Shown: positions 4,805 to 54,938 of the stretch, in pieces
Layout: each line of letters opens with the position of its first letter
Position numbering within the stretch: position 1 is the first letter of the stretch
Assembly (NCBI GenBank): GCA_043802665.1
Contig: JAZDKW010000010.1
Coordinates: 4,024-68,023, forward strand
DNA from: Patescibacteria group bacterium
GTDB taxonomy: Bacteria; Patescibacteriota; Kazan-3B-28; UBA10110
Direction: 5' to 3'
Length of the DNA: 64,000 bases
Program-made: the position numbers and the translations under genes
The notes under the pieces: model-generated
The model's input: the letters and a program-made list of their open reading frames with translations, nothing else
The model's database searches: none
What the model was told of the DNA's origin: nothing

Positions 4805-5422
4805 CTAATTAACAGTTATGGATTCTGCCAGCAACTTTTTGACTGCCTGGGTGGCATCTTCCCAATTGTACGCGCGGATGACTCCGGTTGGGAGCTGGTC
4901 GTTTCTGTTCCAGGGTTTATCTATCAGCACCATTTTAATGTTATGCGCCATTAAGACATCGGCGTGGCGGGCATCATCATCAATAATCACCTCACATCCA
5001 GCTTGCTCACATAATTCACCTTTAGTCAATGCCGGGCTACCATCCATAGAGTAATGATTGGCAAATAATACTCCACGAAAGACACCGGGAAAGTTTTTCT
5101 CCAGATAAGTATGAGTAATGGCTTCGGCAACATGCTGGCGAGCTGTAACAATATATAGCTCGTGTCCGCACGCTAATTCTTGGATAAATTCTTGGGCGCC
5201 TGGTATCAGTGGCAAATTAGCAAACTCGGGGGTCAAGAAAAAATCATGCACATCTCGAACCGCCTGCTCCACTGTAATTTTCATAAAATTTGGCCAGTGA
5301 TAGTCCACCACATCCTCAAAACACCAATTAGTGCCATGCTGTGGGTTGTACCACTTCAAGAATTCCGCGATAAAACTACACAGCACATCATCTAAATCCA
5401 CCGCTATTTTCATATTCTTCAT
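4805..5422 (-). CDS. HAD-superfamily 5'(3')-deoxyribonucleotidase.
   Basis: N-terminal MKIAVDLDDVL (DxDxV HAD motif I); length about 200 aa. Confidence 0.6.
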   Translation of the reverse strand: MKNMKIAVDLDDVLCSFIAEFLKWYNPQHGTNWCFEDVVDYHWPNFMKITVEQAVRDVHDFFLTPEFANLPLIPGAQEFIQELACGHELYIVTARQHVAEAITHTYLEKNFPGVFRGVLFANHYSMDGSPALTKGELCEQAGCEVIIDDDARHADVLMAHNIKMVLIDKPWNRNDQLPTGVIRAYNWEDATQAVKKLLAESITVN

Positions 5423-10190: not shown

Positions 10191-10225
10191 TTTTTTCATT
10201 CTCTAAAAAAGTTTACGGACAATTT

Positions 10226-10256
10226 CAACGGCTCAACCCGTTGAGCCGTTGAAATC
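10226..10256. repeat. Long palindrome TTCAACGGCTCAAC-cc-GTTGAGCCGTTGAA; family member 1.
   Basis: 11-15-bp arms read directly; a related palindrome is at 37316..37345. Confidence 0.6.
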
Positions 10257-10269
10257 TTGCTATAAATTC

Positions 10270-10383
10270 TGGCGGTGTGCGTTCGAAAAAATTCGAACCG
10301 ATTTCGCCCAAAATTTGTAGGGCGGGCGGAATTCCCCCCAGACCCCCCTTCCACCCGCCCGCAGAAGCGACCCTTTCGGATTG
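10270..10383. repeat. IR-a left copy (114 bp, perfect inverted repeat of 11542..11655). Begins with TGGCGG (the reverse complement of a tRNA 3' end) and contains an internal GC hairpin.
   Basis: Base-by-base comparison with the reverse complement of 11542..11655. Confidence 0.85.
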
Positions 10384-10421
10384 GACGATTTCAAGTTTTT
10401 CTTTGGCGGCAAATTCTTTTA

Positions 10422-11168
10422 TTATTCTTTTTGTGCATAACCAATATAACCCAATTTCGTATTTTTCCCGATACCAAATTTAAACTCACCTTTTTTTATT
10501 CCCGCTAATATTCCCGCTAGTATAAAACCTTTTGTTTCTATATTTTTTATATTATATTTTTGCATTAAAAAATTAAGTTCGTCTGGCTTGATGAATTTTT
10601 TCCATTCATGTATATCCACGTTTTCGCCTGATACCTTTAAAGTTTTAAATTGTTTCATCATAAAATAATTAAAAAACCAGTTCATAATTTTTGAAAGAAT
10701 AGTTCTATTTATAGTAAGATAACAAAATTTTCCGCCATGCTTTAGTACCCTTGAAGTTTCGCTTATTACTTTTTCAAGATTGTTTACATGTTCAAGACAG
10801 TCAGCGCAAACTACCACATCAAACGTATTATTTCCCATAGGAATATTTTCTGCAGAACCTACCCTGTAATCAATTTTCAAGTTATTTTTAAAGGCATGAT
10901 TTATTGCCACTTTTATAGCATTTTCAGAAATATCTATTCCAGTAATATTAGCATCTTTTTTAGCAAACTCTTCAGCTAAAAGTCCACCGCCACATCCCAT
11001 GTCTAAAATCTTTAATCCTTTTAATTCTCCAATTGCTTCACTGAAATAGGAAAATCTTACAGGATTCATTTGTTGAAGCGGGTTATTTTTAGTACTCCAC
11101 CAAAAATCATCTATCCGATTGTACATATTGTCTTTAACTATTTTATTTTCTTTAATCCATTTGTCCAT
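10422..11168 (-). CDS. Class I SAM-dependent methyltransferase (UbiG/SmtA-like small-molecule methyltransferase), AT-rich cargo gene.
   Basis: ILDMGCGGGLLAEEF (motif I) and FDVVVCADCLEHV; this stretch is visibly far more AT-rich than the flanks. Confidence 0.75.
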   Translation of the reverse strand: MDKWIKENKIVKDNMYNRIDDFWWSTKNNPLQQMNPVRFSYFSEAIGELKGLKILDMGCGGGLLAEEFAKKDANITGIDISENAIKVAINHAFKNNLKIDYRVGSAENIPMGNNTFDVVVCADCLEHVNNLEKVISETSRVLKHGGKFCYLTINRTILSKIMNWFFNYFMMKQFKTLKVSGENVDIHEWKKFIKPDELNFLMQKYNIKNIETKGFILAGILAGIKKGEFKFGIGKNTKLGYIGYAQKE

Positions 11169-11177
11169 ATGTTTATA

Positions 11178-11384
11178 TTATTTTAATAAATCCTCTATTG
11201 AAACGCCAAGAGATTTGGCTAATTTTGCCATAATAAGTACAGACGGCTTTTTAATAACATTGCTCTCAATCTTTGTAAGAGTAGTGTATTTCACGCCAGA
11301 TTTCTTGGCAAAATCCTCTTGGGATAATCCCTGCTTATTTCGGTACTTTTTTATATTTTCGCCTATGTTGATTTCTATTGCCAT
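11178..11384 (-). CDS. XRE-family helix-turn-helix transcriptional regulator.
   Basis: 68 aa with QGLSQEDFAKKSGVKYTTLTKIESN, the classic Cro/C1 HTH. Confidence 0.8.
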   Translation of the reverse strand: MAIEINIGENIKKYRNKQGLSQEDFAKKSGVKYTTLTKIESNVIKKPSVLIMAKLAKSLGVSIEDLLK

Positions 11385-11396
11385 ATTATCACTAAT

Positions 11397-11445
11397 TTGA
11401 TAGTATTAAAGTGTTATACTATCCTTTCAATATAATACTATCAAA
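11397..11445. promoter_or_regulatory. Operator-like array of half-sites GATAGTAT / ATACTATC (x2) overlapping a TTGATA-17-TAGTAT promoter for the XRE gene.
   Basis: Palindrome TTGATAGTAT-N9-ATACTATC plus a third half-site ATACTATCAA 13 bp further on, directly upstream of the XRE start. Confidence 0.5.
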
Positions 11446-11541
11446 TTTTATGAAAATAGTCCAATTAAAAATGAGGGAAGCCCGCTTTTGGCCCAAAATG
11501 AAATTCGAGCCGATATTTTTTCAGGTTCTTTGGCAGTTTTT

Positions 11542-11655
11542 CAATCCGAAAGGGTCGCTTCTGCGGGCGGGTGGAAGGGGGGTCTGGGGGGAATTCCGCC
11601 CGCCCTACAAATTTTGGGCGAAATCGGTTCGAATTTTTTCGAACGCACACCGCCA
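11542..11655. repeat. IR-a right copy (114 bp) ending in CCGCCA.
   Basis: Identical to the reverse complement of 10270..10383. Confidence 0.85.
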
Positions 11656-11656
11656 A

Positions 11657-11736
11657 TTGGGAAATGTCTTTGTTGGCTCGCCCTCTGCGAGGGCTCGCCA
11701 GCCGATTTTAAGCGCAAATCGGAATTTTTTATCTTT
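11657..11736. repeat. IR-b left copy (80 bp).
   Basis: Identical to the reverse complement of 13169..13248. Including CCGCCA, the match is 87 bp with one mismatch. Confidence 0.85.
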
Positions 11737-11806
11737 GCCCCGCTACTGCGGGGCTGGTCAAAAGCGGGCTTCCCGAATTTTCATTTTTAATTTTTAAGGA
11801 GAAACC

Positions 11807-13435
<1,629 letters not shown>

Positions 13436-14067
13436 ACGAACCAAAAATATTCAAATAAGAAATCACGCTTGGAACGCTGTATAAATAGATTCTTCTCCCT
13501 TCATCGGTGATGTGCGGATTTATCCCGACTTCCTTTAGGATCTTCGCTGTGGAAATAATCAGTTTTTTAGAAGAATTGGTGAAACAGAAACCAATATTAT
13601 GGTATGGCGCATTCCTTACAATATGGTTATGTATGAATAAGCAGCCATCTGTATCCACACATCCTCTGACAAATGCTTTCTGGTATTCAGGATTGTCATT
13701 TATCCATTTTGGAATATCAATTTGTTGAACAACTTTGTTCCCCCTTACTGCACCTTTACCGACTAGAAAATCTAATAGGTTGCTCCCCGAACAAATAAGA
13801 ACTAACGCATTTTGATTAGGCCTTTTTCTAATATACACGTTGATCTCAAATAATTTTCTTAAGAGTCTGTCAATGTACTGCGAATATTCCAGATCAGAAT
13901 TAGAGTTGAGGGTAATGACAAGTTGCCAATCATTGTTTATTCCTCCGTCACCAAAAATAATCCCAAATAATTCTGCCAGTTCCTTTGATTCGTTAGGAAT
14001 ATTAACAATTTTTCTGTGGCTTTTCTTAGGATATTTTAGTAACGAATAATCCATTGTTTAATAAATT

Positions 14068-54732: not shown

Positions 54733-54824
54733 TGGCGGAGAGGGTGGGATTCGAACCCACGATACCCCTTACGGGGTATGCCAGTTTTCAAGACTAGTGC
54801 CTTCAACCGCTCGGCCACCTCTCC
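54733..54824 (-). tRNA. tRNA-Ser (anticodon TGA).
   Basis: GGAGAGG-TG-GCC-GAGCGGTTGAA-GGC-A-CTAGT-CTTGAAA-ACTGG-[variable hairpin]-GTGGGTTCGAATCCCAC-CCTCTCC-GCCA. Confidence 0.85.
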
Positions 54825-54845
54825 ATATAGAGCCAAGTGCGGTTA

Positions 54846-54938
54846 TGGCGGTGAGGGAGGGATTCGAACCCTCGCGGGGAATTGCTTCCCCCTACCGGTT
54901 TAGCAAACCAGCCCCTTCAGCCTCTTGGGTACCTCACC
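54846..54938 (-). tRNA. tRNA-Ser (anticodon GCT).
   Basis: GGTGAGG-TA-CCC-AAGAGGCTGAA-GGG-G-CTGGT-TTGCTAA-ACCGG-[variable hairpin]-GAGGGTTCGAATCCCTC-CCTCACC-GCCA. Confidence 0.85.

Follow-up and report, generated by a model that had tools for sequence, protein, structure and literature searches.

A serine-recombinase element in a bacterial tRNA-Ser gene with a probable second, inverted attachment site and a possible role for that site in DNA pairing

We analysed a 64,000-nucleotide stretch of DNA from a Patescibacteria group bacterium (contig JAZDKW010000010.1, assembly GCA_043802665.1), hereafter the window, around a block of 300 bp at positions 11475-11774. Directly downstream of this block lies the open reading frame of a large serine recombinase (LSR; 11807-13435, + strand, 542 aa as integrated), recognised by its translation and by Pfam matches to Resolvase, Recombinase and Zn_ribbon_recom. 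The resolvase catalytic domain, with its nucleophilic serine, spans residues 4-149 (PF00239, E = 2.9e-19) of a protein that begins with MKYFIYTRKSTD, and is followed towards the C-terminus by matches to PF07508 (E = 3.1e-15) and PF13408 (E = 1.6e-6, above the curated cut-off). According to ARAGORN, Rfam and the translation, the frame reads into a tRNA gene: from codon 483 it continues as read-through on the strand antisense to the integration target, tRNA-Ser(GGA), at 13250-13339 on the - strand (ARAGORN; Rfam tRNA, 55 bits). Homologues of the recombinase mostly end in NWR followed by RGRDSNPR, and no exact copy of this protein is on record in the public protein index. On the other side of the block the - strand carries the cargo (10422-11384), which by Pfam matches consists of a SAM-dependent methyltransferase (10422-11168) and an Xre-type HTH regulator (11178-11384); in relatives, restriction-modification systems occupy this position.

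The first-pass annotation had described the block as back-to-back repeat arms around CCGCCA with a GC hairpin, all enclosed by a 16-bp inverted repeat, and each of these features is borne out, coordinates included. The outer repeat has an exact core, GGGAAGCCCGCTTTTG at 11475-11490 with its reverse complement at 11759-11774 (BLAST E = 0.05 for the 16-mer alone), and continues imperfectly to 40 nt (78%), so that its left arm, IRL, spans 11454-11493 and its right arm, IRR, 11756-11795. Read along the + strand between these arms are S' (11494-11520), R' (11522-11541), the P' arm (11542-11649) with a GC hairpin at 11563-11603, the core CCGCCA (11650-11655), the T' arm (11656-11736) with a terminator-like hairpin and T-run at 11702-11731, and a small GC hairpin, hp (GCCCCGCtactGCGGGGC, 11738-11755), which IRR abuts. 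The hairpin had been placed immediately before the recombinase ribosome-binding site (AAGGAG, 11797-11802), which is incorrect, as the right arm of the outer repeat intervenes. Gene callers propose a protein of 118-128 aa over the block; its frame differs between close relatives and it has no Pfam match, and we discarded it.

Three short inverted copies had been overlooked, two of them linking the block to the interior of the recombinase gene. S' is a 27-nt inverted copy of gene nt 1336-1362 (96% reverse complement of S, 13142-13168) and occurs in all relatives, while R' is a 20-nt copy of nt 138-157 (100% reverse complement of R, 11944-11963). The third, Q (10384-10419, + strand), is a 36-nt copy of nt 85-120, a 100% reverse complement of Q' (11891-11926), and lies without spacer next to the distal P arm described below, a position that it keeps in nearly all loci. 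Within the gene, Q', a palindromic hairpin (pal, 11927-11943) and R form one continuous stretch at 11891-11963.

The two long arms connect the block to the outside. Positions 11542-11655 and 10270-10383 are reverse complements over 114 nt (100%), 11650-11736 and 13169-13255 over 87 nt (99%), and the two repeats overlap by the six nucleotides of the core. At the distal end, the left edge of the 114-nt repeat is a core copy, TGGCGG (10270-10275), marking the junction of host flank and element (an attR-type site), followed by the P arm (10276-10383, 100% reverse complement of P'). At the gene end (13142-13255), S is followed by the T arm (13169-13249, of which T' is a 99% reverse complement) and by a further TGGCGG (13250-13255), an attL-type site; this last copy, which forms the tRNA-Ser(GGA) gene's 3' end, had escaped notice as a partner of the block core. 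The earlier suggestion of an attP-like recombination-site cassette, two arms around a core, thus stands in an extended form: 11542-11736 corresponds to a full inverted copy of attP, its left arm matching the distal end and its right arm the recombinase-gene end at the tRNA. The window from 10270 to 13255 is therefore very probably a ~3-kb LSR element inserted in the 3' CCA end of tRNA-Ser(GGA), with the 300-bp block as its internal, inverted second attP copy.

Comparison of the three sites across ~30 loci reveals tRNA/core/T' at the gene end, P'/core/T' in the block and P'/core/host at the distal end, with CCGC(CA) common to all three. This junction structure points to attP x attB recombination by the LSR. 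CCGCCA, which is the discriminator plus CCA of the tRNA, is by the same comparison the putative crossover region, and in relatives the core changes with the tRNA that is targeted (Ser, CCGCCA; Phe/Leu, GCACCA; Gln, CAGCCA; Trp, CTGCCA; Val, TCCACCA). The P' arm also contains a mimic of the tRNA T-loop, GGTTCGAAT (11626-11634), exactly 5 bp farther from the core than the T-loop itself: the distance between GTTC[GA]A and the shared block is 23 nt in P' and 18 nt in the tRNA in 18 of the 18 scorable loci, on the P'/tRNA side only. The same offset is the published rule for serine integrases, in which attP half-sites carry their recognition motif 5 bp farther out from the centre than attB half-sites do (PMC3783163). 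By eye, the T' arm has no clear mirror of the GGTTCGAAT motif. Since one half-site mimics the T-loop, many tRNAs in many phyla can serve as targets.

In the free form, the recombinase ORF would run across attP (T-core-P). When joined in this way, the P arm encodes a native recombinase tail (CAFEKIRTDFAQNL-stop), with a motif conserved across the family, and a GC-rich hairpin. Integration would then split the ORF-borne attP, moving P to the far end of the element and leaving T beside the tRNA, while the block would retain an uncut P'-CCGCCA-T', flanked by the inverted S' and R' and closed by the hairpin and a 19-40-bp inverted repeat. With one attP in the ORF and a spare one in the block, the free element is predicted to be a small circle in which two inverted attP repeats of ~195 bp divide a recombinase segment from a cargo segment. 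Because two unoccupied tRNA-Ser targets lie 41 kb from the element, an intact attP within the integrated copy is a liability, and the benefit of keeping it must be substantial.

True free forms were found solely by a metagenome pattern scan. Both attP copies are present in contigs L089 and L090 (locus numbers carry the prefix L) as a 195-nt inverted repeat with 96% identity, and both ends of contig L088 fall within the repeat, which makes it a putative circle. The free forms occur in both inversion isomers, L087 and L088 against L089 and L090. Among integrated copies one isomer prevails by 32:1; L013 has its cargo segment flipped, and L061 its recombinase segment, exactly one flip from the common state and then a deletion. 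Inversion of the flanking segments thus does occur in relatives, but the proposal that orientation switching here couples recombinase expression to it stays conjectural. The 300-bp block itself never changes its orientation towards the recombinase gene in the 46 aligned loci. The 16-bp repeat is accordingly not a flip site.

The same architecture recurs in more than 40 independent assemblies, with recombinases 55-96% identical to that of the window, and the block layout is present in 32 of the 35 loci with enough flanking sequence. One family member resides in the genome of a cultured isolate, Schleiferia thermophila DSM 21410 (L024). With so many independent assemblies, an isolate among them, carrying the block, an assembly or MDA chimera is ruled out. 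Near-identical recombinases are found in Patescibacteria, Nitrospira, Brocadia, Kiritimatiellia, Gammaproteobacteria and Bacteroidota. The elements measure 2.5-7 kb and consist of the recombinase, a regulator and 1-6 kb of cargo, mostly restriction-modification genes; with a cargo of regulators, methyltransferases and restriction enzymes only, they show no autonomous replication function, and a directionality factor is not evident in them either. A search of a viral contig collection returned no relatives, so that carriage by phages is not supported. The literature searched contains no description of the family, which is very widespread and apparently undescribed.

Pairing between the block and its partners is maintained across this family. 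In an alignment of 46 sequences, 87% of pair cells are paired, compared with 34-55% in slid registers, and the observed covariation was reached in none of 500 shuffles, which together with the recurring layout goes far beyond chance. Compensatory changes occur in the outer inverted repeat (at 15 of 18 pairs in IRL, with 94% of cells paired), in hp (stem kept, sequence variable), in R':R (97% paired over the 46 loci, double changes at 7 pairs) and in pal (98.8% paired). Every repeat boundary abuts its neighbour with a gap of 0-1 nt, on both partner sides, as in a single-stranded fold with two four-way junctions. Q', R' and S' hardly vary in sequence, as would be expected of protein-binding sites too; synonymous variation is near zero at Q', and Q', R, S and T alike are frozen at their synonymous sites. 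A conserved antisense ORF was considered as the cause of this synonymous constraint and rejected, being open in only about half of the genes and with shifting limits. The attP arms are ~99.5% identical throughout within one element, so that a mismatch gradient away from the core, a clue to a copying mechanism, is uninformative here; ordinary RecA-type gene conversion could homogenise arms of 87-195 bp without a single-stranded fold.

To distinguish DNA from RNA pairing, we compared counts of G.T and A.C mismatches. These are balanced in the long arms (26/24 and 19/21), the outer inverted repeat (16/23), R:R' (12/16) and the intragenic helices (239/223). The comparison is able to detect a strand bias, as the terminator-like hairpin of T' shows one (37/17). 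The pairing constraint is thus strand-symmetric and looks like DNA rather than RNA, and RNA-specific selection on the long-range helices can be set aside, although the absence of a wobble bias says little where only few mismatches, and recent ones, occur.

The explanation that we favour overall, a spare attP together with a role in DNA pairing, has in our judgement about an even chance of being right. Its second part, that the block acts by base-pairing with its partner segments as DNA while the element is single-stranded, is put forward tentatively. Such a state could arise upon uptake by natural transformation or on the replication template. P' and T' would then pair with both element ends, which would be juxtaposed and the duplex attP rebuilt, with one junction formed by P:P', Q:Q', pal and R:R' and the other by T':T, hp, IRL:IRR and S':S; this pair of four-way junctions would hold the fold in place. 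Taken together, the helices form a pseudoknot, whose closure requires a kink or nick of the attP duplex at the core. One could further speculate that the pairing splints the two ends so that host enzymes can circularise the element precisely, which would explain why even the 20-nt copies co-evolve.

Taken to its full extent, the block might be a built-in DNA splint for a recombinase-independent excision coupled to transformation, a possibility that we regard as rather unlikely. Natural transformation is common in CPR hosts. DNA of an integrated copy would enter a new cell and turn single-stranded, whereupon the block would base-pair with the segments inside the gene as well as with the two ends, giving a defined junction structure. 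In this fold, the ends would make up a duplex with nicks and flaps; nucleases, polymerase and ligase of the host could turn it into a precise circle, which the recombinase would then insert at a tRNA gene. If true, this would account for the lack of a directionality factor and of transfer genes, for the spread across phyla and for the concerted evolution of the 20-nt copies.

The alternative that survives best, while still rather improbable, is that the block is the transcribed 5' leader of the recombinase mRNA, with antisense segments that find their partners in the coding region (R, S-T) and terminator-like hairpins, in P' and T', that attenuate read-through. In the free form only, the leader would pair with the 3' end (P, Q) as well, a partnership lost on integration, so that expression would depend on the intactness of attP as in lambda int/sib. 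The block had been thought likely to hold the recombinase promoter, and promoter prediction on both strands found no convincing site in it. Promoter-like sites lie upstream, at 11378-11447, around a conserved palindrome (TTGATAGTA...TATAATACTATCAA); within this stretch, the region at 11394-11447, which separates the HTH gene from the block (TTGATAGTAT... / ...TATAATACTATCAA; inverted repeat I10), has promoter-like matches on both strands, is conserved in relatives and is a candidate promoter/operator. Region-wide, 12 promoter-like matches compare with 8.7 +/- 3.1 expected. Downstream there is no room for a promoter, as block and start codon are only 10-50 nt apart in relatives, with no conservation of the stretch between them. 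The 32:1 excess belongs to the isomer that keeps the promoter-like region beside the block, which the pairing model alone does not explain and which fits a promoter upstream of P' and hence some transcribed-leader role. Free-form isomer A has all partners, from IRL to Q, on one transcript, and as RNA the block folds strongly (-155 kcal/mol, z = -7.2). Against the leader speak the absence of a G.U over A.C bias in any long-range helix, when the T' hairpin does show one, and the perfect 87-bp duplexes that form in the integrated and free states alike, leaving the on/off logic unclear. There is also no Rfam family match: in the window, nothing but tRNAs attains the gathering score, and the best permissive matches in the block have E values of at least 0.35, far below the cut-offs. 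The hairpin of T' matches the intrinsic-terminator consensus on the + strand (11702-11722 plus AATTTTTTAT) and has a twin on the - strand, 13203-13183, directly after the tRNA. As a by-product in the favoured pairing model, the two arms, terminator-like in their present orientation, may insulate the recombinase gene from upstream transcription.

The internal attP, possibly with S', R' and Q, could instead be a protein-binding decoy or operator, at which the recombinase or the HTH regulator binds between promoter and gene and thereby brings about auto-repression of the recombinase. Resolvase auto-represses at res. Both its sequence and the +5-bp rule mark the site as a complete attP, the gene lies on one side of it and the promoter-like region on the other, and the near-invariance of S', R' and Q' is in keeping with bound protein. 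However, ~50 bp is enough for recombinase binding, whereas the identity spans 195 bp plus the short copies, and the outer inverted repeat, hp and pal change their sequence yet stay complementary. Nor would protein sites be expected to abut exactly on both partner sides, and small hairpin insertions in relatives split Q with neither half lost, each staying intact. We consider this explanation unlikely.

It is very unlikely that the recombinase itself operates a programmed inversion switch, an extension of the idea in the first-pass annotation. Here, the internal attP would recombine with the att site at the tRNA and flip the recombinase segment between one state, convergent with the tRNA and ending in a tRNA-derived tail, and another, following the tRNA with the native tail and a terminator. 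Both orientations do exist (L061, L013 and the free forms in both isomers), and the tandem arrays of L004 and L085 suggest that the hybrid site at the tRNA can be re-used as a target. Yet more than 90% of integrated copies are in one state, and the flipped L061 is a decayed, frameshifted copy. Wild-type serine integrases are, moreover, reported not to recombine attP with attP or attL (PMC3783163), which makes host homologous recombination, for which perfect repeats of 87-195 bp are enough, the likelier cause of the isomers; under the pairing model, inversion by host recombination between the attP copies would be a by-product.

A functionless relic of an ancient inverted duplication of the recombinase-gene end, kept alike by gene conversion, would account for all block parts being copies of nearby DNA, for long arms within the reach of RecA-type conversion and for mismatches that look neutral, but is most improbable given that identical order, spacing and abutment are kept across recombinases diverged to 55% identity, that 20-27-nt copies too short for efficient conversion nevertheless co-vary, and that the outer inverted repeat, hp and pal carry compensatory changes.

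The site resembles the attP of phage serine integrases (LI/A118, phiC31, Bxb1) in having two half-sites around a short crossover sequence shared with attB and a motif 5 bp farther out in attP (PMC3783163), and the enzyme shares their Resolvase, Recombinase and zinc-ribbon domains. In contrast to the phage systems, attP lies inside the recombinase ORF and is present twice, inverted, with ~195 bp of identity rather than ~50 bp; no directionality factor is evident, and the elements, of 2.5-7 kb, are not phages and have no relatives among viral contigs. Features that are unusual for a serine integrase are thus the location of attP within the integrase ORF, the recognition through a T-loop mimic, by which several tRNAs can be targets, and the intact inverted attP that integrated copies keep in a conserved, junction-forming architecture.

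Other systems share parts of this organisation. The yeast 2-micron plasmid is a small circle of two unique segments separated by two Flp/FRT inverted repeats that contain the recombinase target, with two inversion isomers; Flp, a tyrosine recombinase, catalyses the flip for copy amplification. The predicted circle of the element is likewise split by two inverted repeats, each with a recombinase target, and both isomers are seen, but its enzyme belongs to the serine integrases and should not recombine identical sites, the element integrates in tRNA genes, and no replication function is seen. In archaeal integrases of the SSV1 type, which are tyrosine recombinases, the int ORF also spans attP and is partitioned by integration; here, unlike there, only the last ~16 codons are swapped for a tRNA-antisense peptide (...RGRDSNPR...), and the element retains, in inverted orientation, a spare copy of the end that is lost.

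Two further comparisons concern the pairing. The attP(+) of CTXphi is a folded attachment site in a single-stranded DNA genome, used by the host tyrosine recombinases XerCD in a single strand exchange, and the element, too, has two inverted att-like copies whose pairing within one strand can yield a duplex recombination site. The single-stranded genome of CTXphi is known, whereas the corresponding stage of the element is one that we infer. A serine recombinase acting on such a folded site would break the chromosome, so any role of the fold must differ from that in CTXphi, for instance as an end-joining splint. As in retroregulation of lambda by int-sib, sequences past attP (P, Q) are absent from the integrase transcript once attP is no longer intact, and as in the fold-back inhibition of IS10, a leader complementary to the gene could silence read-through transcripts. 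The pairing constraint of the element differs from both in being strand-symmetric, and its complementarity is far longer and multi-partite.

The elements are among the smallest self-integrating units known and could be a major, overlooked route for the exchange of defence genes among uncultured bacteria. Should the pairing architecture be functional, it would be a novel means by which an integrative element controls or bypasses excision. A further point of interest, for genome engineering, is a compact integrase family directed at the universally conserved T-loop/CCA end of tRNAs, with attP and attB that can be read directly from genomes.

Homologues with a native tail in L001 and L085 had been candidates as evidence of circles. 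They proved to be tandem arrays, as found also in L004, and the arrays of L001 and L085 borrow the P arm of their neighbour.

Self-comparison of the window revealed that the 300-bp block at 11475-11774 is a mosaic of nearby DNA copied in inverted orientation, made up of a near-identical second copy of the attP site of an element and short copies of segments of its recombinase gene. The first-pass annotation had described a 16-bp outer inverted repeat, a hairpin and a core with back-to-back arms, and all three were recovered: GGGAAGCCCGCTTTTG at 11475-11490 recurs exactly, in inverted orientation, at 11759-11774, the hairpin GCCCCGCtactGCGGGGC (hp) occupies 11738-11755, and the core CCGCCA, at 11650-11655, lies in the 6-nt overlap of two long repeat arms. 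The first arm, P' (11542-11655), is the reverse complement of P at 10270-10383 (114 nt, 100%), and the second, T' (11650-11736), that of T at 13169-13255 (87 nt, 99%). S' (11494-11520; 27 nt, 96%) and R' (11522-11541; 20 nt, 100%) are reverse complements of the gene segments S (13142-13168) and R (11944-11963). A further copy, Q, lies outside the block at 10384-10419 and is the reverse complement of gene segment Q' at 11891-11926 (36 nt, 100%).

The large serine recombinase ORF (11807-13435), with Resolvase, Recombinase and zinc-ribbon domains, runs in translation through TGGCGG into the antisense strand of a tRNA-Ser(GGA) gene, which ARAGORN and Rfam place on the minus strand (13250-13339); this TGGCGG (13250-13255) is thus the tRNA discriminator plus CCA. 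There are three copies of the core: at 10270 it stands between host flank and P, in the block between P' and T', and at 13250 between T and the tRNA. Judged from sequence, this corresponds to the classic layout of an integrated element, extending over 10270-13255 and carrying a SAM-dependent methyltransferase and an Xre-type HTH protein as cargo. Just beyond the distal end, a perfect 16-bp palindrome (ATTTCAACGGCTCAAC/GTTGAGCCGTTGAAAT, 10222-10255) is probably the original bidirectional terminator behind the tRNA before insertion. On the other side, an ORF with a LAGLIDADG_3 domain (13317-14054, minus strand) terminates within the 5' portion of the tRNA-Ser gene, with which it shares ~23 nt, and may encode a homing endonuclease adjoining or inside the tRNA locus. 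Tandem tRNA-Ser genes (TGA, GCT) at 54733-54938, whose 3' ends read TGGCGG...GGATTCGAACC as in the occupied target, constitute empty candidate attB sites at a distance of 41 kb from an element still bearing an intact attP.

Joining T to P yields, directly from the sequence, a recombinase C-terminus of ...NWR-CAFEKIRTDFAQNL followed by a stop. The P arm encodes a conserved tail, C-x-[FY]-[EK]-[KN]-[IV]-R-T-[DE]-[FIL], so the native recombinase gene spans attP, and the block is therefore a second, uncut, inverted attP copy. The K-I-R-T codons of this tail are themselves a mimic of the tRNA T-loop, present in P' as GGTTCGAAT. The distance between the shared sequence block and the start of the motif is 23 nt in P' and 18 nt in the tRNA, an offset of exactly 5 bp that recurs in 18/18 scorable loci; likewise, for LI integrase, the zinc-ribbon-domain motif of attP lies 5 bp farther from the centre than that of attB (Rutherford et al., PMC3783163). 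The earlier description of the block as "attP-like", with two arms around a core, is thus borne out by the offset T-loop mimic and the three-site comparison, which on sequence grounds argue that the block centre is a bona fide attP, and the recombinase and its site appear to agree with a serine integrase and attP in domain content, shared crossover sequence and the 5-bp offset.

Relatives of the recombinase number thousands, many of them 75-94% identical and from widely different phyla. In most, the C-terminus (...NWR, then RGRDSNPR...) is what the antisense strand of a tRNA T-arm encodes, so that the family is habitually located across tRNA 3' ends. We retrieved 80 genome loci, predominantly from Patescibacteria, with others from Kiritimatiellia, Nitrospira, Thermodesulfovibrio, Gammaproteobacteria and the isolate Schleiferia thermophila DSM 21410. 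Order and spacing upstream of the recombinase (outer repeat, S', R', P', core, T', hairpin, outer repeat) are identical in 32 of the 35 loci with sufficient flanking sequence. Partners are found in the gene, at nt ~138-157 and ~1335-1449, and also at a distal end 0.9-6 kb away. Copies belonging to one element share 95-100% identity, including in elements whose recombinase is no more than 55-60% identical to ours. Comparison of the three sites gives this picture in ~30 loci, where the core matches the target tRNA (Ser with any anticodon, Phe, Leu, Gln, Trp, Val or Arg). At several loci the distal copy stops at ...CCGC, followed by host DNA, which places the crossover within CCGC and implies that the element supplies CCA. 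Relatives mostly carry restriction-modification systems (NgoPII plus a C5 methylase, MjaI, TaqI, a type I-like system, N6/N4 methylases), which makes the family a compact vehicle for defence genes. Two MAGs hold two members each: L033 and L083 in JBAZRV01, at tRNA-Ser and tRNA-Val with recombinases 81% and 56% identical to ours, and L039 and L050 in JACRKQ01. Locus L086 encodes an 865-aa recombinase (165-2762; 94% identical over 67% of the query) that appears to contain a large in-frame insertion or fusion and stops at two tandem tRNA-Ser genes. In L074, targeting tRNA-Trp, the S'-R' pair (5185-5232) lies ~770 nt upstream of the recombinase start (6001) instead of the usual ~270 nt, and something may have been inserted in the block.

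Every repeat boundary abuts its neighbour on both partner sides with 0 nt between, except for 1 nt between T' and hp: P (to 10383) meets Q (from 10384); Q' (to 11926), a hairpin inside the gene (pal, 11927-11943) and R (from 11944) are contiguous; R' (to 11541) meets P' (from 11542); T' (to 11736) and hp lead into the right outer arm IRR (from 11756); the left outer arm IRL (to 11493) meets S' (from 11494); and S (to 13168) meets T (from 13169). Such boundaries supply the strand connections needed for two canonical four-way junctions, P:P'/Q:Q'/pal/R:R' and T':T/hp/IRL:IRR/S':S, situated at opposite ends of the duplex built by the two attP copies. In an alignment of 46 loci, 87.2% of cells are paired, as against 34-55% in slid registers, and the covariation score is 0.228, as against 0.114 in shuffles (0/500 reach 0.228). 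Compensatory changes occur in 15/18 pairs of the outer repeat, R':R is 97% paired, and pal, at 98.8%, is maintained within coding sequence by double changes that alter amino acids. Across relatives, hp varies in sequence and keeps its hairpin, and small hairpin insertions within Q spare both Q halves. These insertions are one or two small GC hairpins between GACGATTTCAAGTTTTTC and TTTGGCGGC..., found just past the P arm of the distal end in L002, L003, L006, L009, L019, L024, L030, L055, L078 and L079. Synonymous variation in the recombinase gene is nearly abolished at Q' (0.04 of maximum) and lowered at R, at S-T and in internal windows coinciding with nested intragenic inverted repeats, which are kept in relatives (79% Watson-Crick, compared with 25-39% in shifted registers). 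The nested repeats span 12015-13103 (gene nt ~209-1297) and pair gene nt 209-235/1271-1297, 264-278/1258-1272, 279-293/638-652, 736-749/969-982 and 1058-1074/1217-1233. Nearly every nucleotide of Q' (GAATTTGCCGCCAAAGAAAAACTTGAAAT, alignment columns ~685-720) is invariant among recombinases down to 55% identity, and its GCCGCCA is present even where the element core differs from CCGCCA. In full-text literature covering few subscription journals, we found no description of an attP inside an integrase ORF, of T-loop mimicry opening many tRNAs and many phyla as targets, of a retained inverted attP or of a junction-forming architecture.

One account of what the block does operates at the level of RNA: it could be an mRNA leader that regulates expression in the manner of lambda sib. 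Directly upstream of the block, at 11378-11447, are promoter-like hexamers and a conserved palindrome; P' and T' form terminator-like hairpins within it; and the gap to the start codon in relatives is a mere 10-50 nt and unconserved. These features speak against the recombinase promoter previously placed in the block, which is probably a transcribed, insulating leader instead. The isomer in which the palindrome adjoins the block exceeds the other 32:1, a ratio compatible with a promoter on the upstream side of P'. In a functional RNA helix, G.U pairs are tolerated and A.C mismatches are not. Counts of G.T and A.C are 26 and 24 in the P arms, 19 and 21 in the S/T arms, 16 and 23 in the outer repeat, 12 and 16 in R:R', and 239 and 223 in the intragenic helices; the terminator-like T' hairpin, whose other copy lies directly after the tRNA, provides an internal positive control with 37 and 17. 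Since the long-range helices show no bias towards G.T, the constraint is strand-symmetric, which points to pairing or copying of DNA rather than to sense-strand RNA structure. The arms are ~99.5% identical along their whole length. Gene conversion via host recombination can explain arms of 87-195 bp but explains poorly the covariation in copies of 20-27 nt, whereas heteroduplex formed within one strand folded on itself would account for the two alike.

We tentatively favour, at rather less than even confidence, a block that works by intramolecular DNA pairing while single-stranded. Such pairing would draw both element ends together on the template, possibly permitting precise circularisation without a directionality factor. 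Against it, the helices taken together form a pseudoknot, which would require the core to be kinked or nicked; moreover, the sequences of Q', R' and S' hardly vary, as expected of protein sites, and hence of an operator for the recombinase or a regulator, although the covarying outer repeat and hp do not share this invariance.

The block occurs in integrated and free forms, and its flanking segments are found in both orientations. A metagenome scan for an intact gene-end attP (the S/T boundary, core, then P), which the block itself cannot match, returned four contigs. Two (L089, L090) read IRL-S'-R'-P'-core-T'-hp-IRR-recombinase-S-T-core-P-Q, so that a single molecule carries both attP copies, which form an inverted repeat of 195 nt (96%), and there is no tRNA junction. 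The others (L087, L088) represent the second isomer, ...S-T-core-P-R-S-IRL'-cargo-Q'-P', and both ends of the L088 contig lie inside the repeat, matching the expectation for a putative circle of ~4 kb. Among integrated copies, L013 has its cargo segment flipped and L061 its recombinase segment (tRNA-core-T'-hp-IRR-recombinase); L061 also lacks sequence between its two S copies, which the flip made direct, and its recombinase is frameshifted, so that it is a decayed element fixed in the alternative state. A flip switch driven by the recombinase would produce such isomers, but published serine integrases do not recombine attP x attP or attP x attL (PMC3783163), which would leave host homologous recombination as their simplest source. 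The layout resembles that of the 2-micron plasmid. Least convincing is a relic, given a block conserved across the family and co-evolving with its partners.

Three loci, L004 (6001-7443 and onward), L085 (6390-6503) and L001 (1817-1871), are tandem arrays of different family members with hybrid junctions, in which the T arm of one leads through the core into the P arm of another; the tRNA-side hybrid site seems re-usable as a target.
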